From a virus (lineage: Duplodnaviria > Heunggongvirae > Uroviricota > Caudoviricetes), in the IMG/VR virus record IMGVR_UViG_3300005329_000001: DNA of 64,000 nucleotides; one strand, 5' to 3'. The notes beneath the pieces are model-generated. The model did no database searches. It saw only the letters and a list, made by a program, of their open reading frames with translations, and was not told the DNA's origin. The position numbers and the translations under genes were made by a program. Positions 14,329-61,803 of this stretch are shown here, piece after piece; position 1 is the first letter of the stretch, and the number at the start of each line of letters is the position of its first letter.

Positions 14329-14329
14329 C

Positions 14330-15573: not shown

Positions 15574-15586
15574 TGTCTGTCTCCTA

Positions 15587-16023: not shown

Positions 16024-16167
16024 TCAGGATCCTCCTAATGCGGGAGTCTACTCGATCCATGATCCTGGAGAGAAGAGATGGCTTACCAACGAAAAATTTA
16101 GATCCTGACTGTCATCTCTTCTCACCGACGGAATTCACGTTTAGACCAGAAGCAGGAGGCTCCGGCC

Positions 16168-17972: not shown

Positions 17973-18334
<362 letters not shown>

Positions 18335-28041: not shown

Positions 28042-29511
28042 CTACAGCTTCTCGTTCACACACTCATCAGCACGCTTGTCATCTCTCGCCTCCACGAACA
28101 CTGGATGCCGAAGAGCGTTCGTCTTCTCTCCGTCGGAGATGTACGTCCTGCCTTTGAACTCGCATTTGCAGACGAAGGGGAAGTGCTCCTTCCTGAGCTG
28201 TGCTTGGAACTCGTATGCCATGCCTGACGAGCACTTGGAGATATAGACCAGCTCTCCCTTGGGGTTGTACTGGTACAGAGCCACCGAGCCGACGCCACCG
28301 TGCTCGACCACGGCACCGCTCGGCAGCATCACTTCCTTGTCTCGCTCGTGCTTGCCTGTACCCCACTCACCCATGTTCTTCTTGTCCGGGTCCCAGTACG
28401 CGATGAAGTCGTCCTCGGCCGTCGGCTTGGACTTGGCGCAGCTCGAGGGGCGGTCGGGCTTGCCCTTCAGGCTCCATCCCTTGTCGCCGTAGATCGCGTC
28501 AGGGTCGACGACCACCCAACCCTCGATGCCCAGCTCCTTGGCGTGCTCGAGGGCCTTCTCCGCATTGGGGAAGTTGCAGATCTGAATCTGCTGGATGTAC
28601 TGGGGCACCGATGAGGCGCAGTGCTGGAGGATGATGTTGTAGCGATCGGCTACGCGGACGGTGCGAACCAAGTCTTGCCCGGCATAGAACGGAACGTCCC
28701 ACCAGTAGAAGACAGGCGGGTTCGAGATCTGGTCTTGTAGCGATCGTTCGGTCAGCCCTTTGGTGTACCCCGACGAGATGCGAAGGTCGTCTCTCCCTGT
28801 GACGGGGTTCACGGCGACCAGCTCGACTGCCATCATGGTGCCGTTCGGCAACTGCAACTTCTCGACGTCGGCATAGAGATGGGGGAACCGCAGGGTCCAC
28901 GGCTTCGCCGTCGAGTAGTCGAGAGTGCCGTCGGGCAACTCCAGCGGCTCTTCGGTGTCACTCCACGGACGAGACCGACGAGAGTAGAACCGAATGTTGC
29001 CGTAGAAGTCCTTGATGACCCACATCGCGACGCCGTCGCGCTTGAGCGTATGCAGTGCTTTTCCTGCATTGGTGAGCTCGAGTAGACGCTTGTGGTCTTC
29101 AAGCTCATTCTCGGGCTTGTAGAGGCAAAAGGAGCCCGGCAGGTTGGTTAGCAGGTGGTTGACGCTCTTGTCTTCATTCCGCCGATCGATGTTGTAACCG
29201 GCATCGTATTCGTCATAGCCCTCGAAGTCCCACTTCTTGCGAACGTCTCGCCGAGCTTCTGCGATCGCATCCTGGACGGTCGAGATCTCGTTCTTCTTGC
29301 CCTTGTTCTTGAGCTTGCCCTGGTAGTTGGTCTCTTGCATCGCCCCATCGAGCAGGCCGTGTCGCGTGTAGACGCGATCTTCTTCGACCCAAATCTCCCA
29401 GACGTTTGGGCGATCTCCTCGACCGTTGTGCTGGCGGAATTGCCGGATACGCCCGTCCCACTGGCGCTGCCGCTCGTCGAACGATAGAGATGCCCAACTC
29501 GAGTTATTCAT
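28042..29511 (-). CDS. ATP-dependent polynucleotide (DNA/RNA) ligase, second copy
   Basis: Motif I LKRDGVAM (KxDG). Motif III-like MMAVELVAV. Motif IV EGWVVVD. Motif V SCAKSK. I preferred ATG at 29511 (RBS GGGGAG) over the TTG start at 29535 listed by the ORF track. Confidence 0.7.
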   Translation of the reverse strand: MNNSSWASLSFDERQRQWDGRIRQFRQHNGRGDRPNVWEIWVEEDRVYTRHGLLDGAMQETNYQGKLKNKGKKNEISTVQDAIAEARRDVRKKWDFEGYDEYDAGYNIDRRNEDKSVNHLLTNLPGSFCLYKPENELEDHKRLLELTNAGKALHTLKRDGVAMWVIKDFYGNIRFYSRRSRPWSDTEEPLELPDGTLDYSTAKPWTLRFPHLYADVEKLQLPNGTMMAVELVAVNPVTGRDDLRISSGYTKGLTERSLQDQISNPPVFYWWDVPFYAGQDLVRTVRVADRYNIILQHCASSVPQYIQQIQICNFPNAEKALEHAKELGIEGWVVVDPDAIYGDKGWSLKGKPDRPSSCAKSKPTAEDDFIAYWDPDKKNMGEWGTGKHERDKEVMLPSGAVVEHGGVGSVALYQYNPKGELVYISKCSSGMAYEFQAQLRKEHFPFVCKCEFKGRTYISDGEKTNALRHPVFVEARDDKRADECVNEKL

Positions 29512-29535
29512 TTCATTCTCCCCAGTTAGAGACAA

Positions 29536-42363: not shown

Positions 42364-42747
42364 ATGCTGCGTCGAGACGACTACATCAAGATGCTGGAGA
42401 AGCGGGCATCGATCTCCGATGGCGGGAAGATCGGCCCGACGTTCGACCACGACGTCGACAGCGCGGCCGTCGCCAACTCCGAGCACGACAAGAACCTCAA
42501 CGACAACCGCAATACGCTCGGCACCCTCTTCAAGAACATGGGAGAGGCTCAGAAGGTCGAGACGCGGTTTGCCAACAAGTGGTTCCCGTCGGACAAGTTC
42601 GAGAAGGACACGTCAGCGCCCCTGCTCAAGGTGGCGATGGCAGTCCTGAACGAGTCGAGCACGTTCCAGGCATATCCGACGCATTACAAGGCTGCGGCAG
42701 TGCGCAGCTTCATCAACGAGCTGGGCGCAATCCGCACGGGTGGCTGA
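42364..42747 (+). CDS. Hypothetical protein (127 aa)
   Basis: RBS AAGGAG. Confidence 0.5.
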   Translation: MLRRDDYIKMLEKRASISDGGKIGPTFDHDVDSAAVANSEHDKNLNDNRNTLGTLFKNMGEAQKVETRFANKWFPSDKFEKDTSAPLLKVAMAVLNESSTFQAYPTHYKAAAVRSFINELGAIRTGG

Positions 42748-43565
42748 TGCTCAACCGGCAGTTGGCGCACATCCCGGACTACCACACGCAGATCCTCGAT
42801 CTCTTCCTCGATCAGCACGTCAAGACAGCCGCGCCGAAGAAGTCGCGGGAGGAGATGAAGGAGACGCAGAAGAAGGAGCTCGAGCTCTGGCACCATTGGA
42901 ACACCCATGGTCAGAAGCCGGAGCACCTCATCCCTCTGTACGAGAGCTACAAGCCACTTCTCGTTCGAGAGGCGAATAAGTACGCCAACAAGGTCGAGAT
43001 TCCAACCGCCGCCATCCATCACGAGATTGATCGGCACTTCGTCAACGCTATCAAGACCTTCAACCCCAAGCGCGGAACTCAGCTCAACACCTGGGTCCAG
43101 ACGAACCTGCAGAAGTCGTCTCGCTACATCAAGACCTACCAGAACATCGGCAAGATCCCCGAGGGGCAGATCTCCCAGATTCGTCGATTTGATGCGGCGA
43201 AGGAGCATCTGATGAACCAACTCGGGCACGAGCCGGATACCAAGACGTTGGCCGACCATCTTGGTTGGCCTCAGCGCCGCGTCGTTCAGATGATCAAGGA
43301 GCGCCGGCGAGATCTTCCAGCGTCTGGTTTCGAGAGCGACCCCGCTGAGCTCATGACGCCCAAGGAGCTCGAGGCGATCAAGCTGATGCAGTACGACCTC
43401 ACGCCCGAAGAGCGGACGGTCTACGAGTACACCTTCGGCATGAATGGCAAGCCTCGCCATCAGCCGGGCCAGATCGCCAAGACGACCGGCATTCACCCTT
43501 CCAAGGTCTCCCGCATCCGTAATCGCCTCGTCGACAAGCTGAAAGAGGCAATGGAGCTGGTCTGA
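42747..43565 (+). CDS. Sigma-70-family RNA polymerase sigma factor (regions 2 and 4)
   Basis: Region 2-like LIPLYESYKPLLVREANKYAN...IDRHFVNAIKTFNP...TWVQTNLQKSSRYIK. Region 4 HTH GQIAKTTGIHPSKVSRIRNRLVDKLKEA. The start overlaps the upstream stop (TGATG). Confidence 0.7.
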   Translation: MLNRQLAHIPDYHTQILDLFLDQHVKTAAPKKSREEMKETQKKELELWHHWNTHGQKPEHLIPLYESYKPLLVREANKYANKVEIPTAAIHHEIDRHFVNAIKTFNPKRGTQLNTWVQTNLQKSSRYIKTYQNIGKIPEGQISQIRRFDAAKEHLMNQLGHEPDTKTLADHLGWPQRRVVQMIKERRRDLPASGFESDPAELMTPKELEAIKLMQYDLTPEERTVYEYTFGMNGKPRHQPGQIAKTTGIHPSKVSRIRNRLVDKLKEAMELV

Positions 43566-43792
43566 TGGCTGGTGCAGCGCAGAGACTCCAAGAGCTCAAA
43601 GATGCCGCCGACGACTGGTTCTCGAAAGAGAAGAACCGGTTGAATGCACAATTCGACTTCCTCGACAACATCTCCAAGAAGCGAGGAGGCAGCGTCGGTC
43701 TTCAAGACGCCAACGCTCAGGGCGCTTCGAAAATTCTGGCCAACTCGATCAACGACTATCTCGGCTCCCCGCTAGAACCTTCTAACGAGTAG
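43565..43792 (+). CDS. Small hypothetical protein (75 aa)
   Basis: Coupled start GGAGCTGGTCTGATG. Confidence 0.45.
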   Translation: MAGAAQRLQELKDAADDWFSKEKNRLNAQFDFLDNISKKRGGSVGLQDANAQGASKILANSINDYLGSPLEPSNE

Positions 43793-43847
43793 TTCTCTTC
43801 CCAGTCCTTCCCCATCAGGGGAGAATGCTGGACGGAGGACTCCACAA

Positions 43848-46800
43848 GTGTCGGTACCGACGAGGCTATGCCGAGCTGCTGTGTGGGCGCTTGCGCTCTT
43901 CACAGCATCTGCAGCACTTGCACAATCCCCTTCGCCGACGCCGTCATACACCACGATTCAAAATGGTGGAACGGCTCTGCCTCAGAGGCGCATCGCCAAT
44001 TTCAGCGGTGCGCTCCAGGCGACGGATAATTCCGGGTCGAACAGAACCGACGTCACTATTCCGAACGGCTCGATCGGCAATGCGCTTCTCGCCAACTCGA
44101 CGATCAGCATCCAGGGATCGTCTCCACTCGGTGGTGGCAGCCCGACCGTTCCTCTTGGTGGCTCTGTTCTTCTGACCTGCGCTACCTGCCTCACCGGCAC
44201 TCCTACCGCCGGCGGCGACCTCATGTACTCGATCAGTGGTGGCCAGGCCATGGCCCCGCTGGCAGATGTTGCGGCCGGCTCCTATCTGCGAAGCGGAGGT
44301 GTTGGAGCTCTGCCGCTGTGGTCGACGCTCAAACTTCCGAATGCGGCTACTACCGGCGATATTCTCATCGCCACTGGTACGAACTCGATTGGCAGCTTGG
44401 CGGATGTCGCGACTGGATCAGTTCTCGTCTCTGGCGGAGTTGGAACGGCGCCGACGTGGAGCACGTCTCTTCCATCTGGCGTGCTCCCCAGCGTTGGCCC
44501 GGGTGCCGGAACGTACACCTGGTCAACGGGTGATAGCGTCGGACTCGATGCGCAGGGACGAGTCACTGCCGTCACAAACGTCACCCGCACGCTGACAGGC
44601 GGAACAGGCATCAATGCGATCGGAGACCTCTCCGCCGACCGCACGATCTCAGTCAATCAGGGATTCAGCCCAACCTGGACCGGAACGCATACGTTTACGC
44701 TGGCCCCAGTCATTGGTGACGGTACGGGAACGACGAAATCGATCTCGTTCGACAACCTCGCCGGGCTTGGAACGCTGAGCTGGAATCCGAGCACGACGAG
44801 AACGCTTACCCTCCCAGACGCAACCGATACCATTGTCGGCCGGGCTACCGCTGACACGCTGACGAACAAGACAATCAGCGGCGCCTCCAACACGCTGACC
44901 AACATCGGCAACGGCTCGCTGACCAACAGCTCCGTCACCATCAACACCACAGCACCGGTGGGCGGCGGAGGAACAGTCTCTCTTGGCGGCTCGCTTACGC
45001 TGACTTGCAGCACTTGCCTTGTTGGAACACCGACGGCAACTGGCGACATCCTGTACTCGACCGCGGGAGGCCAGTCACTCTCTCCGCTCGCCGACGTCGC
45101 GGTCGGATCATACCTGCGGAGCGGAGGCGTTGGTGCTGCGCCTCTTTGGTCTACACTCATTCTCCCGAACGCAGCGACTACGGGTGACCTATTCGCGGCG
45201 AGCGCCTCGAATACGATGGGTCGAATCACCGCTGTTGCGGTGAACCAAGTCCTTCTGTCACAGGGCGTCGGGACTCTTCCTGCGTGGGGAACTGTCCCGA
45301 ATGCGGCTCTGACGAACAGCTCCATCACCATCTCTACAACTTCGCCAATCACTGGCGGTACCACAGTGTCGCTGGGCGGTACTGTCACTCTCGCCTGCGC
45401 GACTTGCATCGTTGGTACACCGTCAGCGATCGGCGATATCCTCTACTCGACGAGCGGCGGTCAGGCCATGACCGCGCTCGCAGACGTTGCTGCTGGCTCG
45501 TACCTCCGCTCGGGAGGCTCGTCTGCCGCACCGCTCTGGTCGACGCTGACTCTTCCGAACGCCGCAACGACGGGCGATCTGTTGGCTGCCACAGCCACGA
45601 ACGCAGTCGGCCGCATCACTGCTGTCGCGGTGAATCAGGTTCTTCTGTCGCAGGGCACAGGAACACTACCTGCTTGGGGAACCGTTCCGAACGCAGCACT
45701 GACGAATAGCTCGGTCACGATCAGCACGACCGGCCCTCTTGGAGGCGGTGGGTCCGTCTCCTTGGGCGGCACGCTTACTCTTACCTGCACAACCTGCCTC
45801 ACTGGTACCCCGACAACTACCGGCGACCTGATGTACTCGACGTCCGGCGGACAGGCAATGTCTCGCCTCGCCGACGTCACTGCTGGCTCCTATCTACGGT
45901 CTGGCGGAACGGCGGCTGCTCCAGTCTGGTCGACACTGGCCTTGCCCAATGCGGCGACAACGGGCGACATCCTTTACGCAACTGGATCGAATACAATCGG
46001 CAACCTTGCAGATGTCGCGACGAACCAAGTGCTGCTCTCTGGCGGCGTTGGTGTTGCGCCGTCTTGGGGTACAGTTCCGAATGCGGCGCTAGCCAACAGC
46101 TCCATCACCGTCACGGGAACGGCGGGGCAGATCAGCGTCAGCGGCAGCCCTGTCTCTCTCGGAGGCACGGTCACCATCGGTCTTCCGAACGTCGGCCCTG
46201 GTGCTGGCACGATCGGCGGTGGCGGCAACTTCATCAGCTCAGTCACTCTCGATGCGCAGGGCCGGGTTACGGCGGCTACATCGAGCGGAGTTAGCGGTAC
46301 GATCGGTGGCTTGACCTCTGGGCGTATCCCTGTCGCCTCGAGCTCGACGACACTTGCCGACTCGAATCTGACGTGGGCGAGCAATACTCTCGATGCAACC
46401 GTCAGCGCTGTCACTCTCGGTGGCACAATGCTCACACTTCAGTGGGCAAGTGGAACGAGCAAGACGCTCAATGTTGCGACGGCTGCGGCTGACACTGCTG
46501 GAACGACTTTCACCGTTCAGGCTGGTAATGGCGGTGCCGCTTCAGCGACGGGTGGTGGCAGCGGCGCAACTCTTAACCTGAACGGCGGAACCGGCGGCGC
46601 GGGCACTGCCTCGCTGACTGGTGGCGCGGGTGGCCAGAGTGTCATCCAGGGTGCTTCTGGCGGCGCTGGCACGGCTACGGCCCTTGGTGGCAACGGTGGC
46701 GCAGGTACTGTTCGTGGTGGGCCTGGTGGAACGAATAACGGCGCAGGTGGTGGTACTGCTGGTACTGCATCAATTCGAGGCGGCACGGGTGTCGCCCCCA

Positions 46801-49800
46801 GCGGCAGCAATAACACCGGCGCGGCGGGCGGTCTAACACAAGTTCTTGGCGCCATCCCTGCCGACGGTACCGCATCGGCTGTTGGCGGCGCTGCTGGTGC
46901 GATTCAGATCAGTGGCCAGGCAGGTGGCGCAGATAATGGTGCCGGTGCAGGTACTGGGTCCTCAATTACCATCACCGCCGGCATTGGTCGAGCGGGTCTC
47001 GCAAGCAGTGGCAACAGTGGCTCTTCGGCGGGTGCAATTACCATCTCGAGCGCTCAGAGTGGCAACGGCGGTTCTGGCGTTACGAACGGCAATGGTGGTA
47101 ATGGCGCTACGAGCGCAGCGTGGGCATGGACCGCGAACAAGGGTGGCGACGCCGGAGCAGGTAACGGCACTGGCAACGGCGGCATCGGCGGTAATGGTGC
47201 AGCGTGGACCATTCAGGCTGGCGCAGGCGGGCAGGGTGGTACCGGAACGGCCCCAGGCGCCTCGGGCACGGGCGGAACCCTCACACTGCAGTCCGGCAAT
47301 GGCGGTCTCGTCCAGGGTAGCAATGGTGGAGCGAGCGCTGGCAACGTCGTCATCGATACGGGCACCACTTCTGGGTCAGCAGCAGCCGGCACCATCACCA
47401 TCGGTGGGACCAACAGTGGTCAGGTGAGCATCGGCCGCTCTGGCCAGAACATCATCATCCCAGGCGGCATTGTCCGCGCCACCACTCCAGGCACTGGCGT
47501 GGCCGGCACTGCTCTACTCTTCGGCCAAGGCAACGGTGGCAACGGCTCTGGTGCGACGCCTGGTGGTGCTGGTGGCACTGCCACGCTGTTTGCGGGCCAG
47601 GGTGGTACGGCGACGACTACGTCTGGAGGCACTGCTGGTGTTGGTGGTGCGGCGACTGTGCAGGGCGGTCAGGGCGGCACGGGCGCGGCTTCGACAAACG
47701 GCCCAGGCAACGGTGGTGGCGTCAACATCAATGGTGGCTCGGGCGGTACTTCTGGCGGCACTGGCGGCGGCAACGGCGGCTCGGTCGCAATCAATGGTGG
47801 TGCTCTATCCGGCACGGGCGTCAACGGCTCAATCACCATTGGAACGACCTCGACGGCCGGAATCACCATCGGCGGTACTACTCTTACAACGGGGCCGATC
47901 TTCAATACGGCGAGCGCAACGTCTTACGTCTGGCGCTTCAACAATACGACCAACCTGACGCTGTCCGCCTCGATCCTGCAGTTCTCGGGAACGGCCAACG
48001 CTACGTACAACATCGGGACGGCTGCGACAGACGTCGCGGGCAAGAACCTCACGGTGAACGCGGGCAACGCCGGCACCGCTTCGACGGTGAATGGCCAGAG
48101 CGGCGGCACGATGACCGTTCGCGCTGGTGCCGGTGCGGCTGCTACCAGCACCCTCTTCGCGGGCGACGGTGGGCCGACCAGCCTCACGGGCGGTACGGGT
48201 GGTGCTGGATCGGCGGCGCAGGCGTCTGGCAACGGCGGCCTTCTCACGATTGCAGGTGGTGATGCGGGAGCTGATGGTGGAGCCGGACAGGGCAACGGTG
48301 GTGGCGTTACTATCAGCGGTGGCAACACGGTCTCCGGCTCATTCGGCAATATCAATATCTGCACCACCAACACCAACAACTGCAATATTGGCGCGACCGG
48401 AATCTCCCTCGCACTGAATTTCAGTGACGGCACTACGCAGACAACGGCCTATACCGCAGCCGCTAATACGCTCTCTTCGGTATATGCGCACGGATCAACG
48501 ACGGGAAATCAAACGATCACGACGTCCTCCGCCAATGGTGGTGGCGTCATCATTGCCAACAACGGCACCGTCGCTGACACGCTCATTGTGAAGGATGGCT
48601 TTGGTACTGCCGTCATCGATGTGCAGACGGTTGGTAGTCCCGCCAATGTCGCAATTGGCGGCACGATGTCGATCAACAACACGCTCACTATCTCTGGAAC
48701 CAGCCAGGCCATCGCCTTCGGAGGTGGCGATCTGGCGATGGACATCGGCTCCAATGCGGCTCGTGGTCGCAACTTCTTTGCCTCGCAGTTGACAGCAGGT
48801 ACGGTGGCGGCTGCGAACGACACCGCTGGCACGCCTTTGGCCCTCGGAGCTCAGCTTGGAGGCCCAGGTAGTTCAGTTGCTGGTGGAGCCGGTGGTGATA
48901 TCTCCGTCGTTGCTGGCGGCGGCGGAAATGGGTTTGCGTTTGCGCCTGGTGCTGCTGGCCGAGTCTTCATAACTGCCGGTGCAGGAAATACAAGCAGCGG
49001 AAGCAGCGCTACTGTTGGCGGTGCGGTCAACATCAATGGCGGTGTCGGTGGTAATAGCGGCGGTTCTGGCCTAGCTGTTGGCGCCGGTGGCGCGGTCAAT
49101 ATTACTGGCGGTAATGCAGGCACGTGGACTACGGGAGCTACGGGCGGCGCCGGTGGTGCCGTTGTGCTCACGGGTGGAACTCCGGCATCAAGTGCCGCTG
49201 CGACTGGCGGCGGTATCCAACTCAACGCTGCTGCGGGTTCCGTTGGTAGCTCAAGCGCAGCCCCTGGCGCAGGTGGCTCGATTCAGCTCTTGGCCGGTGC
49301 TGGTAACACGATGATCTCCGGCTTCACTGGATCTGGCGCACAGGGTGGTGCGGTTACGATCACCGCTGGTGCCGGTAGCGATTCGAGCGGAACGGCGACG
49401 ACGTCTGGCGCTGCAGGAACGGTCACTATCACGGCGGGTAAGGGCGGCGCCGGTGGTGCGTCAGATGGTGGTGCTGTGGGCGGCGCTGCGGCTCTTATCG
49501 CTGGTGCTGGCGGAGCAAATAATAACGGATCTGCTTCTGGTAACGGTGGCGCTGCATCTTTGCAGGGTGGAGCAGGTGGAGCGACCAACAACAACTCCAT
49601 CTCTGGCGGAACTGGCGGTGCCGCTCAAATCATCGGCGGAAACGGTGGAAACGGCAGTGCCCAGGGCCCCCCAGGTCCTGGTGGTAACGTCACCATCACC
49701 GCTGGCAACTCAGGCTCTGTTGGTGCGTTCGGCGGCAACGTCAACGGTGGCAGTGTCACGATCGATGGCGGAACGAAGGTCAACAGTGGCACCGCCGGCA

Positions 49801-50660
49801 CCATCACGATTGGTGGCACCAACGCGAGCGCGGTCAATATCGGCCGCTCTGGTATTACGACGACGATCACTGGTGGCCTCACTCAGTTGACTGGCGCCAT
49901 CAGTCTGACCGGCAATGCAGCGTCCACCATCACGACGAGCAGCGGTAACACTACGGTCGACTCTGCCGCGGCGCTGCAGCTTGGCACCTCGAACGCTACC
50001 AGCGTCTCGATCTCGAAGACGGGCGTTCGTTCGACGGTCAATGGCACCTTCAACGTTGCCTCGCAGTCGGCACCAGGATCTCCGACCAACGGCGATGTCT
50101 GGACCGACTCGACTCAGAGTGCTCTCGCTACCCAGCAGCTCGGCCTCAAGCAGATGCTGCAGGGAACCGCCTTCTCTTCAACGGCGAACGGTACGGTCAA
50201 CACTGCTACCACTGCCACGATCGTCGGCACCGGCGTTGGAACGGCCACCCTCCCAGCGAACTTCTGTGCGGCGGGCAAGACCCTGCATATTCACAACGGT
50301 GGGGTCATCACCACTACGGCGACGCCAGGCAACTTCACCTGGCTCATCAAGCTGGGAGCCACAACAATCGCAACGACTGGCGCCCTCAGCACGGTTGGAG
50401 CGTCGCTCACCACGAAGGGCTATGACGTCGATGCATTCCTGACCTTCCGCACCTGTGGATCGAGCGGCACGGTCATGGTCGACGGCAACGTCATCTTCCC
50501 GACCTCGACTACCGCTCGTGGTTTCGCCGATTTGAACAACAACGGCGGTACGACCACCATCAATACGACAGGATCTCTTGCCGTCGACGTGCAAGCTACT
50601 CTCAGCGCTGCCAGCCAGACTGTCTCTGGAACCGTCACCACTGTTGAAGTCCTGAACTAA
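43848..50660 (+). CDS. Giant secreted fibre or adhesin-like protein (2270 aa): Sec-type signal peptide, about 390-nt tandem CxTC beta-repeats, an about 1100-aa Gly-rich low-complexity region and a distinct C-terminal domain
   Basis: GTG start with RBS GGAGGA. Signal peptide MSVPTRLCRAAVWALALFTASAALA-QS. Five copies of a repeat carrying the conserved segment VSLGGTLTLTCxTCLxGTPTxxGDxxYSTSGGQAMxxLADVxAGSYLRSGG. Long GGxGGxG tracts from about 46500 to 49900. Confidence 0.7.
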   Translation: MSVPTRLCRAAVWALALFTASAALAQSPSPTPSYTTIQNGGTALPQRRIANFSGALQATDNSGSNRTDVTIPNGSIGNALLANSTISIQGSSPLGGGSPTVPLGGSVLLTCATCLTGTPTAGGDLMYSISGGQAMAPLADVAAGSYLRSGGVGALPLWSTLKLPNAATTGDILIATGTNSIGSLADVATGSVLVSGGVGTAPTWSTSLPSGVLPSVGPGAGTYTWSTGDSVGLDAQGRVTAVTNVTRTLTGGTGINAIGDLSADRTISVNQGFSPTWTGTHTFTLAPVIGDGTGTTKSISFDNLAGLGTLSWNPSTTRTLTLPDATDTIVGRATADTLTNKTISGASNTLTNIGNGSLTNSSVTINTTAPVGGGGTVSLGGSLTLTCSTCLVGTPTATGDILYSTAGGQSLSPLADVAVGSYLRSGGVGAAPLWSTLILPNAATTGDLFAASASNTMGRITAVAVNQVLLSQGVGTLPAWGTVPNAALTNSSITISTTSPITGGTTVSLGGTVTLACATCIVGTPSAIGDILYSTSGGQAMTALADVAAGSYLRSGGSSAAPLWSTLTLPNAATTGDLLAATATNAVGRITAVAVNQVLLSQGTGTLPAWGTVPNAALTNSSVTISTTGPLGGGGSVSLGGTLTLTCTTCLTGTPTTTGDLMYSTSGGQAMSRLADVTAGSYLRSGGTAAAPVWSTLALPNAATTGDILYATGSNTIGNLADVATNQVLLSGGVGVAPSWGTVPNAALANSSITVTGTAGQISVSGSPVSLGGTVTIGLPNVGPGAGTIGGGGNFISSVTLDAQGRVTAATSSGVSGTIGGLTSGRIPVASSSTTLADSNLTWASNTLDATVSAVTLGGTMLTLQWASGTSKTLNVATAAADTAGTTFTVQAGNGGAASATGGGSGATLNLNGGTGGAGTASLTGGAGGQSVIQGASGGAGTATALGGNGGAGTVRGGPGGTNNGAGGGTAGTASIRGGTGVAPSGSNNTGAAGGLTQVLGAIPADGTASAVGGAAGAIQISGQAGGADNGAGAGTGSSITITAGIGRAGLASSGNSGSSAGAITISSAQSGNGGSGVTNGNGGNGATSAAWAWTANKGGDAGAGNGTGNGGIGGNGAAWTIQAGAGGQGGTGTAPGASGTGGTLTLQSGNGGLVQGSNGGASAGNVVIDTGTTSGSAAAGTITIGGTNSGQVSIGRSGQNIIIPGGIVRATTPGTGVAGTALLFGQGNGGNGSGATPGGAGGTATLFAGQGGTATTTSGGTAGVGGAATVQGGQGGTGAASTNGPGNGGGVNINGGSGGTSGGTGGGNGGSVAINGGALSGTGVNGSITIGTTSTAGITIGGTTLTTGPIFNTASATSYVWRFNNTTNLTLSASILQFSGTANATYNIGTAATDVAGKNLTVNAGNAGTASTVNGQSGGTMTVRAGAGAAATSTLFAGDGGPTSLTGGTGGAGSAAQASGNGGLLTIAGGDAGADGGAGQGNGGGVTISGGNTVSGSFGNINICTTNTNNCNIGATGISLALNFSDGTTQTTAYTAAANTLSSVYAHGSTTGNQTITTSSANGGGVIIANNGTVADTLIVKDGFGTAVIDVQTVGSPANVAIGGTMSINNTLTISGTSQAIAFGGGDLAMDIGSNAARGRNFFASQLTAGTVAAANDTAGTPLALGAQLGGPGSSVAGGAGGDISVVAGGGGNGFAFAPGAAGRVFITAGAGNTSSGSSATVGGAVNINGGVGGNSGGSGLAVGAGGAVNITGGNAGTWTTGATGGAGGAVVLTGGTPASSAAATGGGIQLNAAAGSVGSSSAAPGAGGSIQLLAGAGNTMISGFTGSGAQGGAVTITAGAGSDSSGTATTSGAAGTVTITAGKGGAGGASDGGAVGGAAALIAGAGGANNNGSASGNGGAASLQGGAGGATNNNSISGGTGGAAQIIGGNGGNGSAQGPPGPGGNVTITAGNSGSVGAFGGNVNGGSVTIDGGTKVNSGTAGTITIGGTNASAVNIGRSGITTTITGGLTQLTGAISLTGNAASTITTSSGNTTVDSAAALQLGTSNATSVSISKTGVRSTVNGTFNVASQSAPGSPTNGDVWTDSTQSALATQQLGLKQMLQGTAFSSTANGTVNTATTATIVGTGVGTATLPANFCAAGKTLHIHNGGVITTTATPGNFTWLIKLGATTIATTGALSTVGASLTTKGYDVDAFLTFRTCGSSGTVMVDGNVIFPTSTTARGFADLNNNGGTTTINTTGSLAVDVQATLSAASQTVSGTVTTVEVLN
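44908..46200 (+). repeat. Tandem array (about 3.3 copies, period 390 nt) of diverged in-frame repeats inside the giant gene. One further copy lies at about 44088-44480.
   Basis: Copies start at about 44908, 45301, 45691 and 46081. They are about 70% identical at nucleotide level and 75-80% at protein level. Each copy carries a CxTC pair. Confidence 0.65.
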
Positions 50661-50699
50661 GTGGTACAAAGGGGACGGGCAATCACTGAGAGGCCAACC

Positions 50700-51035
50700 A
50701 TGAAGATCCTGATCCCGATCCTAGCTCTGCTGCTCTCGACCGTCGCGCTCGCCGAGCCCAAGCCGTCTCCTCCCTTGAACTTGCCATCCAAGATGGCGAT
50801 CACGGACGCCCTCAAGCTCACGGCTGCGTGGGCGAACCGAAAGCGGATCTATGAGACGGCGAGGGCTGATGCGGCGGTCTTTGACATGGAGATCGCGCGC
50901 ATTTGCAAGCAGTACAAGATCGATCCGAACCAGCTCACCGTCACGGTTGGTGTGGACCCGGATTCCGGCGAGATTCAGCGCGCTCGCCCGCCCGAGCCGC
51001 CGAAGCCCGAGAAGGCTGAGCCAAGCAAGAAGTAA
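50700..51035 (+). CDS. Small secreted protein (111 aa) with a Sec signal peptide
   Basis: Product MKILIPILALLLSTVALAEP. Lys/Pro-rich C-terminus. Confidence 0.5.
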   Translation: MKILIPILALLLSTVALAEPKPSPPLNLPSKMAITDALKLTAAWANRKRIYETARADAAVFDMEIARICKQYKIDPNQLTVTVGVDPDSGEIQRARPPEPPKPEKAEPSKK

Positions 51036-51075
51036 GGCTCTCTGACCAGGGAGCGGAGACGGAGGACGTTTAGAG

Positions 51076-51579
51076 ATGGCCAGCCCCCACGTTGTTGGCT
51101 TTGCATTGTTCAGCAATGTCGACGGATCTCCGCTCACTGGTCAGTCGCCGACCTTCTTGACGTACTGCGACGAGACTGGTTCAGACATTCTTCCGAAGCC
51201 ACCCATCACTGAGGTGAAAGGTGGCTTGTACGTCTTCACTCCATCATTCCACGCGAATCACCTGCTCTGCTACGTGATCGACGCTGGAGCGAGCTCGCTC
51301 AGTCGCTACTATTCGGACATCCTTCGTCCAGAGAGCTTCGACGTCGACCAGATCGCGGCAGCGGCCACCAACGCAGCCAGTGCGGCCACCGCCGCGACGA
51401 ATGCGGAAGCCGTCTCTGTCATCGTGAGGAAGATTCAGACCAACAGGTGGATCGTTGCGTCCAACCAGCTCATCATCTACGACGACGACCGGACGACGCC
51501 GCTCTACACGTTCAACCTCTTCGACCAGAACGGTATCCCGTCGATGACGAGCATCTTCCAGCGCGTTCCGACGCCGTAG
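51076..51579 (+). CDS. Hypothetical protein (167 aa)
   Basis: ORF track. Confidence 0.5.
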   Translation: MASPHVVGFALFSNVDGSPLTGQSPTFLTYCDETGSDILPKPPITEVKGGLYVFTPSFHANHLLCYVIDAGASSLSRYYSDILRPESFDVDQIAAAATNAASAATAATNAEAVSVIVRKIQTNRWIVASNQLIIYDDDRTTPLYTFNLFDQNGIPSMTSIFQRVPTP

Positions 51580-57093: not shown

Positions 57094-60000
57094 ATGGCGT
57101 CCTCGGACGATCTGAAGAACTTCGTCGAGAACCTCCTCACGTCGTATGATCCGACGATCGACCTCTCTCCCGGCTCGCCGGCGGAGACCCAGATCGTGCA
57201 GCCCATCCTCGATAGGTTTGCTGCCGACCCGTTTGCGACGGATATCCCGACCTTCCTGCGTGATCGCCTCCTCCAAGAGTTCCCAGCTCTGGCGGCAGAC
57301 AATGGCGGGCAGCTCGAAGATCTCATCACTAACCCGATGCAGATGTTCCTGGAGCCCTTCAAGAGGGAAATCCAGACGGTCAAGACCAACCAGTCGGTGG
57401 TGAATGCCGAGCTGATGGCTGACTCCGAGGCAGATGCCCTCGGTGCGAACTTCTTCGAGCCCCGTGAGGCGGGTGACTTCTCCGGCGGTTTGGTGCGCCT
57501 CTACTTCGCCGCCCCCGTGACGGTGAACGTCACGACCGACAAGAAGATCTACACGAACACGGGTCTCAACTTCTTCCCGGTCGAGAACTTCAAGATCACC
57601 ACCGCGCAGATGCTCTTCAATCGTCAGGGCAACCTCTACTTCATGGACATCACCGTCCAGGCAGAGAATCCCGGCGACCAGTACAACGTTGCTGTCGGTG
57701 CGATCGCCAACATCGACGACGTGCCCGGCGTGGTGAAGGTCTCGAACCTCTCCGCGTTCACGGACGGAAATCCTCGCGAAGACAACGCCACCTACCTCGG
57801 GCGCATTCCGCAGGCCCTCACCGAGCGCTCCCTCGTCACCCAGCGTGGTATCGAGGCTCGCATTCCCGACCTCTTCACGTCGGTTCGGGCGCTCAGCATC
57901 ATCGGTGCCGGCGACCCGGGAATGGACCGGGACATCCTCAAGGGCACGAGTGAGGGCTTCCTCCATCTCGCAGGCAGTGCGACCTACTACGGTGAGTGGC
58001 TCATCATCTCGAACCTCATTTATCGAGATGGTGGACCAAACGGCGATATCGTCATCCAAGCGGGAGATCTCGTTCGCTTCAAGCCGAGCTCTGGTAGCAC
58101 GGTCTACGAAGCGCACATCTCAGTGGTGGTGCCGGCCACGACGCTGGCGGCATCGACAGAGTACATCCTCATTCTGGATACGACTCTGCCGGTGACTGCC
58201 CCAAGCAGCGGCTCGTTCGCGCTTTTCAAGAGCGGCTTCATCACCATCTCGGAAGTGCCGGGAGGCATTGCCTCCAACGTTCAGGTCGCTGATGGCACCG
58301 TCCATCTTGGCGGTCACACGGACGTCTTCGTTCGCCCCAACAGCGATACGACGCTTCAGGACAGCCTCCCCAACATCACCGACGACAGTCCTGTCTTGGC
58401 GATCGCTGGCAACGCGGCTTCGAACTTCCGCATCAACGGCTCGACTGGTAGCCCAACCAACATCGCGTTCAGCGGTGGAACGTCTCCCATCGACTTCGTC
58501 CAGGCTGGCGTCCAAGTAGGAGACATCGTCATCATCGAGACGTCTGCCTTGGCCGGCTCCTACCGAGTCCTGGCGATCAACGATCCCGACGAGTTCAGCC
58601 TTCGTCTGGATACGCTCTTCACGCAGACCCAGACACAGCTTCGCGCCCGAATCGTTCGGAACATCCACATCGACCTGGTCGAGCCGAAGATTCCCAAGCT
58701 CCCGTTCGATACCGGCTCTGTCTCGGACTTGAGCACGACCGTCGGTTCGAAGCTCTTCCGACTGACGACCATCAACATCCAGTCGTTCGGGGCAGTGGTG
58801 GGCGATACCATCCGTGTGTTGGATGGACCAGATGCGGGGGACTTCGCCATCACCGGGTTCGACACGGTGCTGGGCGGGCAGGGCCCCATCGTCGACCGCG
58901 CAGCCGGCGCCTCGACAGCGAACCTCCGCTACGAGGTGTTCACGCCGTCGCCGGGCCTCACATTGCCCTTGGTGCGCATCAAGGGGATCGAGATCCTCGA
59001 CTCGACCAACCAAGGCACGGGCATCACCGTCCCGTACGGTGACGCGGTCGATATTCGACCGACCTGCGACTTCCAGGGTGCTGCGAACGAGGTGCGGGTC
59101 CTCGACAGCCAGATCTTCATCTTCCCGGATGCGACCGGTTTGTGGCCGCTCTCGAACACTGGTGTCACGCCAGGGGCGAATCACGACGCTCGCTACTCTC
59201 AGGAGATCCAGAGCTTCGACGGTTTCTACCGACCCATCACGACCCAGAACGGTGGCAACCCCATCACGCAGAACGAGGTGAACATCCCTCCGTTCCTCTA
59301 CGATGGGAATCGCAACAAGCTGCTGGCGTTCACAACGAGGAAGGACCCGAACTTCACCGCTTTCCCGGGTGGAGACAACCGAACGAGTGATGTTGCAGAG
59401 GCGAAGATCGGAGACTCGCTGACCATCCTCGATGGGCCGAATCAGGGCTCGTACCTCATCACCGATCTCCGCGTCCTCGACATGTGGTCGGTGACAGACG
59501 CCGGCCACCAGAAGATCGCGGTCGTGCAGGTCGACCCTCCGTTCCCCGTCGATCCGGTCAAGACGATGATGAATCTCATCGCCGCAGTGACGCCGGGAAG
59601 TGCCATCACCGGTACCGATCTTTTGAAGACGATTCAGTACTCAACGGACTTCTTCAATGGAAGCGGGTTCTGGAGTCTGCTGCAGGGTCGTCTGCAGGCG
59701 GTGATGACGGCGTTGTCGATCACCATTTCGAATGGCGATCTCAACGCACTGACGAAGAGCTTGTCCTTTACGGGCTACTCCGTCGGACCGTCCGCCAGAG
59801 GCACACTGCGTGTCTACTTCCAGGAACCTGTCTCTGCTGAGTTCCGGTCTGGCATCAATCCGACCCGCTTCGTCGATCTTCTGCAGCCGAGTCGTGTCTT
59901 CCGGCTGGACCCAGTTCTGCCGGACGCTCAAGTGTTGCCGGAGTCGGAGACTCAGACACCTCCGTCTCAGTGGAGCCGGAACACCTCTGAGCGCTGGTTT

Positions 60001-61803
60001 GTGAACGGAGGCTCGCCGGACGCCAACGCCTTCATCACGACCGGCTCGGCTTACATCAAGAGAGGCGTCGAAGACGGAGACGAGTACGAGTACTACCCGG
60101 CCATCAATGACTTCCCGGCTCGAGACCAGATGCAATCGAGCTGGGTCTGCGTGACGCAGGCTGGCTCAAATGTCATCACGGTCCTCTTGCCAGCCGTTCC
60201 TGGACACCTGACGTTCATTCAACCGGGGCAGCTCTTCTTCATCGATAGCGGTCCCGACATCGGCGCCTACAACATCACCGAGGTGATCACCGACGAGCTC
60301 GACGGCAGCGGTGCCAATCCCGATCGGCCGGTGGTGCAGTTCCGCATCGACAAGACGATGACGCACTCGACGGCGGGCGTGCCGGGCAGCCTCGATCTAT
60401 CGCCAACGGCGCGACCGGCAATGCCGAGCGACTTCAGCACTGGAACGACCCGAGTCATCTCTTCGCAAGCGCGCCTCTACCACCCGTCGTTTGCATCGGC
60501 CGCATCACCGAACGTCGACTGGGTGTCCATCTACGCGGTGGCTAATACGACTGTCGAAGAGTTCGGGGACGACGTGGCCTACCTCGGAACCTTCTTGGTC
60601 ATCGATCAGCAGTCGGATATCAACGGCGACTACGTGGTCTTGGACCGCTCACCTGCGTTTCCCGACGCGTCCACGTCGCCAGCGACAGCCTATCCGAGCA
60701 CGGCTCAGGTCTTCTGGATTCTCCACAGTGCGCCCGATGCTACGCCTACGTCGACCTCTGGCGGAGGGACGGCCCTCTCCAATCAGTACGTTCGCTGCCG
60801 TCTCTACGATTCGGTTCCGCAGACTCGGTTTGTGAACATTCCTTGGTCGTCGGGAAACCCGCTCATCGATCACATCCCGGACCTATTGCCGTCGGACCCG
60901 AATTACACGGCCAGCTCTGAGCAGATCAAGCTGAAAGACAAGACTGGCGCGGATAGTCCCATCAGCAGCTCGGGTAACTTCCTAGGCCTCACAAACCAGT
61001 CGTTCTATGAGCATTGGTCTCCTTATCGAGTGCTGCGCCAAGGCATCCACAAGATCTCCTCGACGGCGATGGCTCTGCAGCGAGAGGGGGCTCTCTACTT
61101 CGTCGATCTACCGGCGGTTGGGTACGGGCCGCAGTCTGAGATGAACATCGCCGAGGACACGGCGCTCGGCATCAAGGAGAACGCCAAGATCGATGGTTAC
61201 CAGCTCGTGGTGGACAACAGCATCTTCACATTCTCCGACCAAGAGCAGGTCTCGATCGTCATCCCGCCGTCAATCTTGCCGGTCGGCTCGACGCCTGGAA
61301 TCGTCAATGAAATCGACCTGGCAGGGCAGACGATTCAGATCACCTACGACAATGCGCCGCTTGCAGAGGAACTGCAGAGGTTCTTCAACTCGCCTCTGGA
61401 TCGCGTCGTGGTGGCGAACTACCTCATCCGCCATTTCTTGCCAGCGTACGTCTTCCTCGATGTGGCCTACGTGGGCGGTAGCGACACGAGCGTTGTGGCG
61501 AAGGATCTCATCAACTACATCAATACGGTTCCGCCGTCGGTCAATCAGTTAGTGGCAAGCCAGGTCGAGAACATCGCTGTTCGTCGTGGGGCGACGAAGG
61601 TGACTCTACCTCTCACGCTCATCGCGCTCGTTCACGACATCGATAGGAAGATCCGTGGTCTTCGGTCCAAGAATGCGATTGGCGCTGGAGACGTCCCTAT
61701 CTTCAACGGGACATACGCTCAGACGTACTTCATCGCCGGGCCAGATACGTCGAACACGCAGCCGAGGCCGGACGGTGAGCAGGTGTTTTTGACAAGGACC
61801 TAA
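57094..61803 (+). CDS. Very large putative structural protein (1569 aa)
   Basis: ORF track. Confidence 0.55.
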   Translation: MASSDDLKNFVENLLTSYDPTIDLSPGSPAETQIVQPILDRFAADPFATDIPTFLRDRLLQEFPALAADNGGQLEDLITNPMQMFLEPFKREIQTVKTNQSVVNAELMADSEADALGANFFEPREAGDFSGGLVRLYFAAPVTVNVTTDKKIYTNTGLNFFPVENFKITTAQMLFNRQGNLYFMDITVQAENPGDQYNVAVGAIANIDDVPGVVKVSNLSAFTDGNPREDNATYLGRIPQALTERSLVTQRGIEARIPDLFTSVRALSIIGAGDPGMDRDILKGTSEGFLHLAGSATYYGEWLIISNLIYRDGGPNGDIVIQAGDLVRFKPSSGSTVYEAHISVVVPATTLAASTEYILILDTTLPVTAPSSGSFALFKSGFITISEVPGGIASNVQVADGTVHLGGHTDVFVRPNSDTTLQDSLPNITDDSPVLAIAGNAASNFRINGSTGSPTNIAFSGGTSPIDFVQAGVQVGDIVIIETSALAGSYRVLAINDPDEFSLRLDTLFTQTQTQLRARIVRNIHIDLVEPKIPKLPFDTGSVSDLSTTVGSKLFRLTTINIQSFGAVVGDTIRVLDGPDAGDFAITGFDTVLGGQGPIVDRAAGASTANLRYEVFTPSPGLTLPLVRIKGIEILDSTNQGTGITVPYGDAVDIRPTCDFQGAANEVRVLDSQIFIFPDATGLWPLSNTGVTPGANHDARYSQEIQSFDGFYRPITTQNGGNPITQNEVNIPPFLYDGNRNKLLAFTTRKDPNFTAFPGGDNRTSDVAEAKIGDSLTILDGPNQGSYLITDLRVLDMWSVTDAGHQKIAVVQVDPPFPVDPVKTMMNLIAAVTPGSAITGTDLLKTIQYSTDFFNGSGFWSLLQGRLQAVMTALSITISNGDLNALTKSLSFTGYSVGPSARGTLRVYFQEPVSAEFRSGINPTRFVDLLQPSRVFRLDPVLPDAQVLPESETQTPPSQWSRNTSERWFVNGGSPDANAFITTGSAYIKRGVEDGDEYEYYPAINDFPARDQMQSSWVCVTQAGSNVITVLLPAVPGHLTFIQPGQLFFIDSGPDIGAYNITEVITDELDGSGANPDRPVVQFRIDKTMTHSTAGVPGSLDLSPTARPAMPSDFSTGTTRVISSQARLYHPSFASAASPNVDWVSIYAVANTTVEEFGDDVAYLGTFLVIDQQSDINGDYVVLDRSPAFPDASTSPATAYPSTAQVFWILHSAPDATPTSTSGGGTALSNQYVRCRLYDSVPQTRFVNIPWSSGNPLIDHIPDLLPSDPNYTASSEQIKLKDKTGADSPISSSGNFLGLTNQSFYEHWSPYRVLRQGIHKISSTAMALQREGALYFVDLPAVGYGPQSEMNIAEDTALGIKENAKIDGYQLVVDNSIFTFSDQEQVSIVIPPSILPVGSTPGIVNEIDLAGQTIQITYDNAPLAEELQRFFNSPLDRVVVANYLIRHFLPAYVFLDVAYVGGSDTSVVAKDLINYINTVPPSVNQLVASQVENIAVRRGATKVTLPLTLIALVHDIDRKIRGLRSKNAIGAGDVPIFNGTYAQTYFIAGPDTSNTQPRPDGEQVFLTRT

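Follow-up and report, generated by a model that had tools for sequence, protein, structure and literature searches.

A tail-fibre-derived protein and its small partner, both predicted to be exported by Sec, in a large myophage

The 64,000-nucleotide stretch of DNA analysed here (the window) encodes a protein of 2270 aa which is, with a probability that we put at about 0.7, a receptor-binding fibre derived from tail fibres, exported by the Sec pathway and matured in the periplasm together with a co-exported helical partner. Tail fibres set the host range and are taken to fold and to be mounted in the cytoplasm. Since tailed phages assemble their particles in that compartment, a recurrent pair of exported fibre and partner is unexpected; the pair recurs in several unrelated phages. 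The window comes from an uncultured large myophage, a distant relative of Salmonella phage Arash, with which it shares the order of sigma factor and baseplate genes. The fibre gene (43848-50660, plus strand, like all features located below) stands between the sigma factor gene (42747-43565) and the baseplate J gene (57094-61803), on the same strand as both. This position within the tail/baseplate module, as well as the modular shaft and the C-terminal binding domain of the product, is what one expects of a tail fibre; the departure lies in the signal peptide, present and conserved, where a fibre folding in the cytoplasm would have no export signal. Spanin-like lysis genes, encoding Pro-rich lipoproteins beside a PG-binding protein, imply that the host has an outer membrane. 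The window also carries a tmRNA gene and genes for PurA and ThyX.

The prediction of export depends on where translation starts. The in-frame candidates are codons 1, 12 and 126. Codon 1 is a GTG with the sequence GGAGGA, read directly as a ribosome-binding site (43834-43839), 8 nt upstream, and the same start was used in an independent gene call on the Logan contig SRR5451810_17048. Codon 12 falls within the hydrophobic core and lacks a ribosome-binding site, and codon 126 falls within repeat 1. Residues 34-125 are kept across homologues, which makes the hydrophobic segment unavoidable. An internal start, which the preliminary description had considered as a way out of the signal peptide, is unsuitable at either codon; as judged from the sequence, codon 1 is the only sensible start, and it forces a predicted signal peptide of the Sec type. 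The N-terminus consists of MSVPTRLCR and AAVWALALFTASAALA, followed by the cut and QSPS, so that an n-region, an h-region and an AxA motif can be read from it, in agreement with what is expected of substrates of Sec and signal peptidase I: a positively charged n-region, an uncharged hydrophobic h-region of some 10-16 residues, and small residues at -3 and -1. The predicted signal peptide (aa 1-25, MSVPTRLCRAAVWALALFTASAALA, 43848-43922) would be cut by signal peptidase I before Gln26, which agrees with the AALA-QS site described previously; this reading is strengthened by the single workable start and by the conservation of the signal character in the orthologue from locus L016. The mature N-terminus (QSPSPTPS…) and the first linker module of the shaft (aa 26-82, 43923-44093) are conserved in L016 too, and the same linker module is found inside signal-peptide-free fibres. 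In our own heuristic scan of the real genes at 31-64 kb, signal peptides were assigned to two products only, the fibre and that of the next gene (50700-51035). A Tat signal is ruled out for the fibre, which has no twin-arginine motif, and so is a lipoprotein, including an exclusion lipoprotein of the Llp or Cor type, as neither signal peptide of the window contains a lipobox; a possible lipobox, LGSC, was seen in the protein P0085 alone.

The mature chain is built of modules. Repeat unit 1 (130 aa, aa 83-212, 44094-44483) carries the motif CATC and is separated by an insert of 147 aa (44484-44924), 73% identical to the homologue P0001 and composed of the modules LPxVGPGAGT…LDAQGRVTA and TLTNKTISGASNT, from units 2-4, which form a tandem of 390-nt repeats with a CxTC pair each (aa 360-489, 490-619 and 620-749; 44925-46094). 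A fifth unit (aa 750-830, 46095-46337) is truncated and devoid of the Cys pair. The CxTC repeat of about 130 aa noticed earlier is hence real, while its copies number four and a remnant, not at least five. Direct repeats begin at 44313, 45141, 45531 and 45921 (828, 390 and 390 nt apart). Identity among units 2-4 is 65-69% at the nucleotide level and 69-78% for the protein, and about 60% of their conserved residues are encoded by different codons; these figures support, at the level of sequence, old repeats under purifying selection, in line with the earlier proposal that the copies are kept by selection.

The glycine-rich shaft that follows (aa 851-1960, 46398-49727) comprises 1,110 aa in three or four blocks and contains 28% Gly, 17% Ala and 13% Thr. 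Its resemblance to collagen-like or PGRS tracts, as suggested in the preliminary description, did not hold. The autocorrelation of Gly has its maxima at 10 and 22 residues and only a faint component at 3, corresponding to a rhythm of 10-11 and 21-23 residues; there is no G-x-y period, PE domain or Pfam match, and TRF finds only a few arrays of 9-27 nt with about two copies. Instead, the tract is 60-68% identical to P0001 and P0002, the latter being a signal-peptide-free fibre to which it is 68% identical over 497 aa. The C-terminal domain (aa 2056-2270, 50013-50657), in which a receptor-binding function had been sought, is a jelly-roll tip with matches to the cyanophage tail fibres 9k09 and 8ke9 and to PRD1 P5; the fold is held in common with BclA and C1q/TNF-like domains. 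These matches support a jelly-roll of the type seen on phage receptor-binding proteins. The domain is not unique, as had been thought: it also matches C-termini of uncultured phage proteins (E=1e-11), and some members of its family are stand-alone proteins of about 180 aa.

Comparison with homologues supports, as far as sequences can, that the export of the fibre is real. In L016 the signal peptide (aa 1-25) has diverged to 16% identity and is still signal-peptide-like, whereas the mature part is 58% identical over aa 26-125 and 80% over aa 126-400; the tip is different. The fibre gives mosaic matches to 66 large fibre-like proteins, its first-round homologues, 9 of which begin with unrelated Sec-type N-termini. 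A profile search with the repeat unit retrieved 2795 representatives, and among the best matches to the repeat family roughly one in three bears an export signal. Of 198 family members, 58 bear an export signal as called by our own heuristic, 22 of them with CxTC, against 1 among the 140 that do not (Fisher p=1e-12); the Cys density is 6.6 versus 1.7 per 1000 aa (p=8e-10). Relatedness among the sequences partly inflates this association. The three CxTC homologues that lack a signal peptide carry a transmembrane anchor at the N-terminus instead, and in one case a DsbD/thioredoxin gene is adjacent. Every signal-peptide fibre of the high-GC phage contigs has an AxA/Q cleavage site. The general idea of an export-dependent role, put forward before these comparisons, fits both the L016 orthologue and the association of CxTC with export. 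Sequence searches of Pfam, PHROGs, NCBIfam, PADLOC and PDB returned nothing useful for the fibre, its partner or the neighbours, the only PDB matches being to nanobody frameworks at chance level (E about 0.1). Searches of 50,697 cultured phage genomes by tblastn with the whole protein and with two units gave no match, to which the low-complexity filter may have contributed, and a scan of genome contigs with the repeat unit yielded one Bacteroidota MAG locus.

The partner (50700-51035) has 111 aa, of which aa 1-18 are the predicted signal peptide (MKILIPILALLLSTVALA, followed by the cut and EPKP); the rest is predicted to form a long helix and a beta hairpin, with a tail rich in Pro and Lys. 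This model is too simple for a meaningful fold search. The signal peptide noticed earlier on this protein is indeed there and is kept by the family in other loci, in all members except two signal-peptide-free sequences tied to the query from L007. The family is rare (about 10 clusters among 5.8 billion sequences): scans with the partner gave no match in genome contigs, only the window's own contig in IMG/VR, and one new locus, L016, in metagenomes. As is typical of tail-fibre assembly chaperones, the gene is small, lies directly downstream of the fibre gene and is co-inherited with it, namely in six loci (the window, L002, L004, L005, L008 and L016); in L012 a partner-like protein is encoded two genes downstream of the fibre. 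Pfam, PHROGs and NCBIfam gave no match and, by these, no similarity to gp57A, gp38, Tfa or the S74 chaperone. The next gene (51076-51579) encodes a protein of 167 aa without a signal peptide, 48% identical in L016 and 29% in L007, and is the third gene of a cassette that moves between phages. It was also compared with Arash gp12, which it does not match.

Taken together, these features suggest a receptor-binding fibre diverted to the Sec pathway from assembly in the cytoplasm, and we consider its export and periplasmic maturation, predicted from sequence, to be highly probable. Judging by strand and operon position, the fibre would be made together with the baseplate genes. The signal peptide would send the unfolded chain through Sec, and signal peptidase I would cut after Ala25 and expose Gln26, which might cyclise to pyroglutamate. 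In the oxidising periplasm the CxTC pairs, one in each of the four 130-aa units, would presumably become oxidised, and the chain would form a long fibre of about 100 nm, if the T4 long fibre is a valid analogy. The 111-aa helical protein, exported at the same time, probably helps folding, as it is encoded where fibre chaperones normally stand. The jelly-roll tip would bind a surface ligand, relatives having different tips. Export rules out that the fibre is mounted in the cytoplasm, and it should thus act outside: the infected cell may carry it, anchored on its envelope or surface, or particles may receive it once holin-triggered lysis mixes the compartments. That a shaft exceeding 2,000 residues is conserved suggests that reach matters, which favours a fibre anchored on a cell or a particle over a soluble decoy. 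Several observations tell against export: the estimated length far exceeds the assumed width of the periplasm, no route across the outer membrane is evident, and the position after baseplate J in L016, together with the signal-peptide-free version in L007, suggests a role in the virion.

The two destinations are nearly equal in probability, with at most a slight edge for the envelope or surface of the cell. The fibre would stay on the infected or lysogenic cell, held by its Gln/Pro-rich N-terminus or by the partner, and would mask or bind receptors, thereby excluding superinfection or shielding the progeny from debris, or would make cells stick to each other. The position of the gene varies as that of morons does, which points this way: L002 has it beside an integrase and glycosyltransferases, L004, L005 and L006 have it ahead of the lysis cassette, and L012 has it inside a head module. 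Cell-encoded relatives are membrane-anchored surface proteins, the MAT fibres of Bdellovibrio display the same architecture on a diderm surface (PMC10769870), and signal-peptide proteins of Porphyromonas gingivalis phages are thought to alter the envelope (PMC10367356). On the other hand, neither a signal for translocation across the outer membrane nor an anchor was found: Pfam and NCBIfam searches with the whole protein revealed no autotransporter, T9SS or T1SS signature and none of the C-terminal sorting or anchor domains of surface-secreted cargo (T9SS, trimeric autotransporters, RTX proteins of T1SS); the C-terminus is occupied by the jelly-roll tip. A scan of the window for promoters and terminators found nothing that marks the cassette as a transcription unit of its own, PADLOC gave no match, and so long a shaft seems excessive for simple masking of receptors.

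Almost as much credit goes to a true virion fibre, folded oxidatively and stored in the periplasm, which would dock on finished particles at lysis, in the seconds between the opening of the holin hole and the rupture of the outer membrane or just after release. It would account for the gene lying in the baseplate/fibre module and, in L016, directly after a baseplate-J-like gene whose end it overlaps. The phage of L007, syntenic with the window, has in the same place a fibre version without the signal peptide and the same neighbour of about 160 aa; the homology of its small signal-peptide-free protein to the exported partner is doubtful (hhalign probability 12%). In L018 a relative of the 167-aa neighbour sits between signal-peptide-free fibre genes downstream of a baseplate-J gene, in a region with no signal-peptide fibre. 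In other members, as seen by eye, the signal peptide precedes the very module with which signal-peptide-free fibres start, and the tips are exchanged as in receptor-binding proteins. Nevertheless, docking after lysis is expected to be inefficient, and our literature search found no description of a tailed-phage fibre with a Sec signal; we know of no tailed phage with an exported fibre docked at lysis. In the Mu-like loci L006 and L008 the fibre gene closes the baseplate/fibre module, three or four genes past a gp48-like gene, and signal-peptide-free fibre candidates are encoded upstream, so that the exported fibre looks like an extra one; the cassettes within the head module (L012) and beside the integrase (L002) tell against a virion fibre too. 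The full scheme of a two-compartment phage, whose fibres acquire disulfides and form trimers in the periplasm, aided by an exported chaperone of their own, and are mounted at lysis, appears rather unlikely. If it were true, the cassette versions with and without signal peptides would be alternative solutions in related phages.

An ordinary fibre assembled in the cytoplasm is improbable. In that case the hydrophobic N-terminus would be a docking or trimerisation helix or would be removed by a phage protease, which is in keeping with the gene position, the fibre architecture and the attribution of signal-peptide predictions in capsid proteins to cleavage by prohead protease (PMC10367356). It is hardly compatible with a signal character retained at 16% identity, a partner with a signal peptide of its own, Cys pairs almost confined to forms with export signals, and the invariable AxA/Q site in the high-GC phage contigs. 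That the gene is a cellular surface adhesin near a prophage can be dismissed almost entirely, in spite of the tmRNA, PurA and ThyX genes and the existence of cellular homologues, given that a phage-type sigma factor and baseplate genes flank it on the same strand, as ordered in Arash, the presence of identical DNA in IMG/VR, and the phage-like nature of every signal-peptide fibre locus examined.

A recurrent fibre under selection for export, along with an exported partner of its own, would mean that particles are finished outside the cytoplasm or that receptor-binding fibres are placed on or in the envelope of the infected cell. The latter would resemble the display of envelope proteins by animal viruses and could affect superinfection, aggregation and spread. 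Either outcome would change the annotation of fibre genes in metagenomic phages, and fibre modules stabilised by disulfides are a possible resource for engineering.

Among known systems, the MAT fibres of Bdellovibrio are signal-peptide-bearing, tail-fibre-like trimers on a diderm cell surface, with a beta-rich domain, conserved and about 130 aa long, that immediately follows the signal peptide, and an S74 chaperone-protease in 13 of 21 (PMC10769870). Their genes are chromosomal genes of a predatory bacterium, B. bacteriovorus, whereas the window fibre is encoded by a phage. Its mature N-terminus leads straight into shaft modules, and its exported partner has no described counterpart in the MAT system; a Pfam search gave a match neither to such an N-terminal domain nor to Peptidase_S74. 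With mycobacterial PE_PGRS proteins, BclA and collagen-like phage fibres it shares a very high content of Gly and Ala, but it has neither G-x-y triplets nor a PE domain nor simple tandem arrays, and the sequence of its tract is conserved. The classical long fibres, T4 gp34-37 with gp57A and gp38, Mu S/U and lambda Stf/Tfa, are made without a signal peptide and fold cytoplasmically, and T4 gp57A is reported to be mostly helical. The window fibre is like them in lying beside baseplate genes, in its mosaic shaft common to other fibres, in its receptor-binding-type tip and tip exchange, and in the small gene immediately downstream, whose product is mostly helical as gp57A is; it is unlike them in that both fibre and partner carry Sec signals, and database searches found no sequence similarity of either to the fibre or chaperone proteins of T4, Mu and lambda. 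Llp of T5, Cor of phi80 and N15, and Imm and Sp of T4 are, as far as is known, small lipoproteins or membrane proteins, not receptor-binding fibres of more than 2,000 residues. In contrast to Llp and Cor, the window fibre is of that size, has a receptor-binding tip and lacks a lipobox. What it has in common with such exported phage proteins, those of P. gingivalis phages included, is the predicted use of the host Sec pathway and a possible action at the envelope; in the P. gingivalis phages the cut exposes an N-terminal Gln (PMC10367356), the same residue that is predicted at the mature N-terminus of the window fibre.

The gene of the 2270-aa tail-fibre-like protein (hereafter the fibre; 43848-50660, plus strand) has three in-frame start candidates. 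Codon 1 is a GTG preceded by GGAGGA at a distance of 8 nt, codon 12 falls in the hydrophobic stretch without a ribosome-binding site in front of it, and codon 126 lies within the first repeat. As the latter two are unsuitable and residues 34-125 are conserved among homologues, translation must start before the hydrophobic segment, which excludes the internal Met start, and with it the loss of a signal peptide, considered in the preliminary description. The same start was called in an independent assembly (Logan SRR5451810, locus L001), and identical DNA is also present in IMG/VR and two JGI metagenome contigs. The N-terminus, MSVPTRLCR-AAVWALALFTASAALA followed after the cleavage site by QSPS, shows the tripartite layout of a Sec/signal peptidase I signal; lipoprotein and Tat readings were rejected, there being neither a lipobox nor a twin-arginine motif. 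According to our own heuristic, the fibre and the 111-aa product of the following gene (the partner) are the sole signal-peptide proteins among the real genes of the 31-64 kb operon.

Four independent comparisons (orthologue drift, other homologues, Cys pairs and the partner) agree in indicating that the signal peptide, as originally proposed, is real, and Sec export of the fibre may be regarded as well supported by them. Firstly, L016 comes from a different phage, which has only the cassette of fibre, partner and a gene of about 160 aa in common with the window. Its fibre is 67-73% identical to that of the window up to residue 2032 (58% over residues 26-125 and 80% over residues 126-400), while its signal peptide, MKRLFWLLAALLATQTAYA, cleaved before QPAPTPSYTTIQ, is 16% identical; such drift with retained character is the pattern expected of a working signal peptide. 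Secondly, of the 66 homologues retrieved by the first search, nine have Sec-type N-termini of unrelated sequence. Thirdly, among 198 family members, the CxTC pair of the repeat units occurs in 22 of the 58 proteins whose N-terminus bears a signal peptide or a transmembrane anchor versus 1 of the 140 without (Fisher p=1e-12, relatedness ignored), and the Cys densities are 6.6 and 1.7 per 1000 residues, respectively (p=8e-10, again ignoring relatedness). A restriction of Cys pairs to exported forms normally marks an oxidising compartment. In three CxTC proteins devoid of a signal peptide (P0014, of a Dojkabacteria MAG, P0026 and P0059), a single transmembrane helix joins a cytoplasmic N-terminal region to a giant external part; helix-anchored P0026 (3105 aa, four CxTC units; L013 8001-19488) is encoded on an 878-kb cellular contig, with a DsbD_TM/thioredoxin fusion gene two genes downstream. 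In the syntenic phage L007, neither the fibre (P0002) nor the small protein at the equivalent place of the partner has a signal peptide; homology of this small protein to the exported partner was not demonstrated (hhalign probability 12%).

The fourth comparison concerns the partner itself (50700-51035, plus strand), whose N-terminus, MKILIPILALLLSTVALA continued by EPKP…, agrees with the signal peptide noticed earlier on this gene. Its family comprises about 10 clusters among 5.8 billion sequences, and all members carry a signal peptide save two, which are linked to the L007 row in the query alignment. The partner immediately follows the signal-peptide fibre in the window, L002, L004, L005, L008 and L016, and a similar helical protein with a signal peptide, ending in …IDPNTGEVKP, is encoded two genes downstream of the fibre in L012. 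In its AlphaFold2 model, aa 34-71 form a single long helix (pLDDT above 90), accompanied by a beta hairpin and a disordered tail rich in Pro and Lys.

At the predicted cleavage site, all signal-peptide fibres from phage contigs of 58-70% GC have Gln at +1, in most cases with a Pro-rich stretch behind it; Gln occupies this position in the fibres of the window and L016 and in P0001, P0003-5, P0011, P0016, P0023 and P0032. In the family, an AxA-type site followed by Gln was found in at most 32 of 50 members with a predicted signal peptide, the site picker favouring Gln if there were several sites. The +1 residue of the partner was Glu, Asp or Ala in all nine cases. The Q-rule of Bacteroidetes (PMC5837995) could explain the Gln of low-GC members, but does not account for its confinement to the fibre within one phage. 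The N-terminus may carry a pyroglutamate cap or play an anchoring role.

The mature fibre begins with a short Gln/Pro/Ser/Thr-rich stretch, followed by four full 130-aa units, each with a Cys pair (aa 83-212, 360-489, 490-619 and 620-749), a 147-aa insert separating the first two, and by a truncated fifth unit without the pair (aa 750-830); the CxTC repeat described previously thus stands, in four copies instead of at least five. Every full unit carries the motif NSSxTxxTTxPxGGGxxVxLGGxLTLxCxTC and then two copies of the sub-motif GDxxY…LxxVxxGxxLxSxGxxxxPxW. Among units 2-4, identity is 65-69% at the DNA level and 69-78% at the protein level, with different codons at about 60% of the conserved residues; they are old duplications kept by purifying selection, and selection on the copies had been supposed in the preliminary description. 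The motif GGGxVSLGGSLTLTC (44925-45020 and other unit starts) resembles immunoglobulin VH framework 1, and the only PDB sequence matches are nanobody chains (E about 0.1); this likeness is probably due to chance.

The glycine-rich tract (aa 851-1960; 28% Gly, 17% Ala, 13% Thr) had been compared with collagen-like or PGRS-type low complexity. It is, however, not collagen-like: Gly autocorrelation peaks at 10 and 22 residues, and the spacing of 21-23 residues between recurring hydrophobic positions suggests a beta-solenoid. The tract is composed of three or four blocks, the first and the last ending in a …GTITIGGTN…IGRSG element, and is 68% identical to P0002 over 497 aa and 60% to P0001 over 381 aa, so it is not a freely drifting low-complexity sequence. 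Short shaft modules of the TLTNKTISG… type are common to the fibre and the giant-virus proteins P0012, P0013, P0044 and P0051 (Fadolivirus gp0978, gp0979).

The C-terminal domain, initially considered unique, turned out to belong to a family: relatives of the last 215 residues include stand-alone proteins of about 180 aa, although no sequence-level membership of any named family was found. The AlphaFold2 model of this tip, built with the family alignment, is a beta-sandwich (mean pLDDT 70, core blocks 75-92). A Foldseek search of viral models with it retrieved C-terminal ends of numerous uncultured Caudovirales proteins, at E values reaching 1e-11, along with weaker matches to those of the phi15 tail spike and KP34 depolymerase, so that at the fold level the modelled tip is of the receptor-binding type. 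Tips are exchanged between relatives and differ between the window and L016 fibres.

The window appears to come from a large phage genome. Auxiliary genes encode ThyX (2158-3114), a SpoU-type methylase (3711-4250) and adenylosuccinate synthetase PurA (9054-10421), all on the minus strand, a LigD phosphoesterase plus OB ligase-like protein (7624-9057, plus) and an ATP-dependent DNA ligase (28042-29535, minus). The minus strand also encodes a DnaJ domain fused to a protein-kinase-like domain (11652-12725) and a full-length one-piece tmRNA (17974-18334; Rfam 125 bits; tag peptide ANDNVRVQSNLSAPLQAAA). Unusual cargo for a phage is encoded at 4351-7146 (minus), where a 931-aa protein combines a weak vault repeat with a shoulder domain of the major vault protein (E=1.4e-23). 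The probable lysis cassette (13211-16024, minus) contains a membrane protein and a PG_binding_1 protein encoded beside two Pro/Cys-rich lipoproteins (MRFSLILVLLAGC… and MKTMALLLGIALASISLPGC…), which we interpret as putative spanin components, pointing to a host with an outer membrane. The late operon occupies one strand between 31 and 62 kb, its last gene encoding a 1569-aa baseplate-J protein. Weak similarity by tblastn links two of its proteins to Salmonella phage Arash and related Vibrio phages; the baseplate-J protein matches Bacillus phage G as well. The order of large structural proteins, cell-wall hydrolase, sigma factor and baseplate is common to the window and Arash, a distant collinearity in which the sigma-70 region 3/4-like factor (42747-43565, plus) takes the relative position of gp10, the sigma factor of Arash. 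The fibre cassette comes just after this factor, with a single 75-aa ORF (43565-43792) in between.

The three-gene cassette (window 43848-51579, L016 4240-10747, L007 10001-16769), with its third gene lacking a signal peptide in all three, is common to phages with almost nothing else alike. In L016 the end of a baseplate-J-like gene is overlapped by that of the fibre, and in L018 the ~160-aa gene lies between signal-peptide-less fibre genes downstream of baseplate J. In the Mu-like L006 and L008, the signal-peptide fibre comes after baseplate J, gp48 and shorter fibre-like proteins without signal peptides, and is followed by lysis genes (L006, with two such fibres in tandem) or the operon end (L008). 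Elsewhere the fibre has a primase-polymerase on one side and a spanin/holin/endolysin block on the other (L004 and L005, on contigs about 90 kb long), adjoins an integrase downstream of glycosyltransferases (L002), occurs within the head module (L012) or, as an 812-aa collagen-like protein with a signal peptide, just before lysis genes (L010, a Bacteroidota MAG locus of 35% GC). These placements indicate that the cassette derives from a true fibre module and is mobile between phages.

We suppose that the fibre would be exported by Sec, cut before Gln26 and, with its CxTC pairs oxidised, folded in the periplasm with the help of the helical partner, which is encoded where fibre chaperones usually are. 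Since export precludes mounting of the fibre on particles in the cytoplasm, it should act outside; the conserved shaft of more than 2,000 residues suggests that reach matters and favours a fibre anchored to envelope or particle over a free decoy. Of two readings close to each other in probability, one is display on the envelope or surface (about 0.4), in accordance with the moron-like cassette positions, the membrane-anchored cellular relatives and the mosaic adhesive trimer (MAT) fibres of Bdellovibrio (PMC10769870). The other, almost as probable, is mounting on particles once lysis mixes the compartments, to which the origin in a fibre module, the coupling with baseplate J and the signal-peptide-less version at the same locus point. 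A non-functional signal peptide is improbable, as it goes against orthologue, other homologues, cysteines and partner alike.

In architecture the fibre resembles tail fibres, but it departs from the classical ones in one defining property, cytoplasmic assembly without an export signal. No tailed-phage fibre with a Sec signal was described in the literature searched, the nearest report concerning phages of P. gingivalis, which encode signal-peptide proteins of unknown function (PMC10367356). The fibre is unlike both collagen and PGRS proteins, and no autotransporter, T9SS or RTX signal was found in it. The MAT fibres of Bdellovibrio, all of which have a conserved domain after the signal peptide (PMC10769870), are likewise Sec-exported fibre-type adhesins in a diderm host, export and host being predicted in the case of the window. 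An S74 domain, present in 13 of the 21 MAT proteins, is missing from the window fibre, which differs from them also in being phage-encoded.
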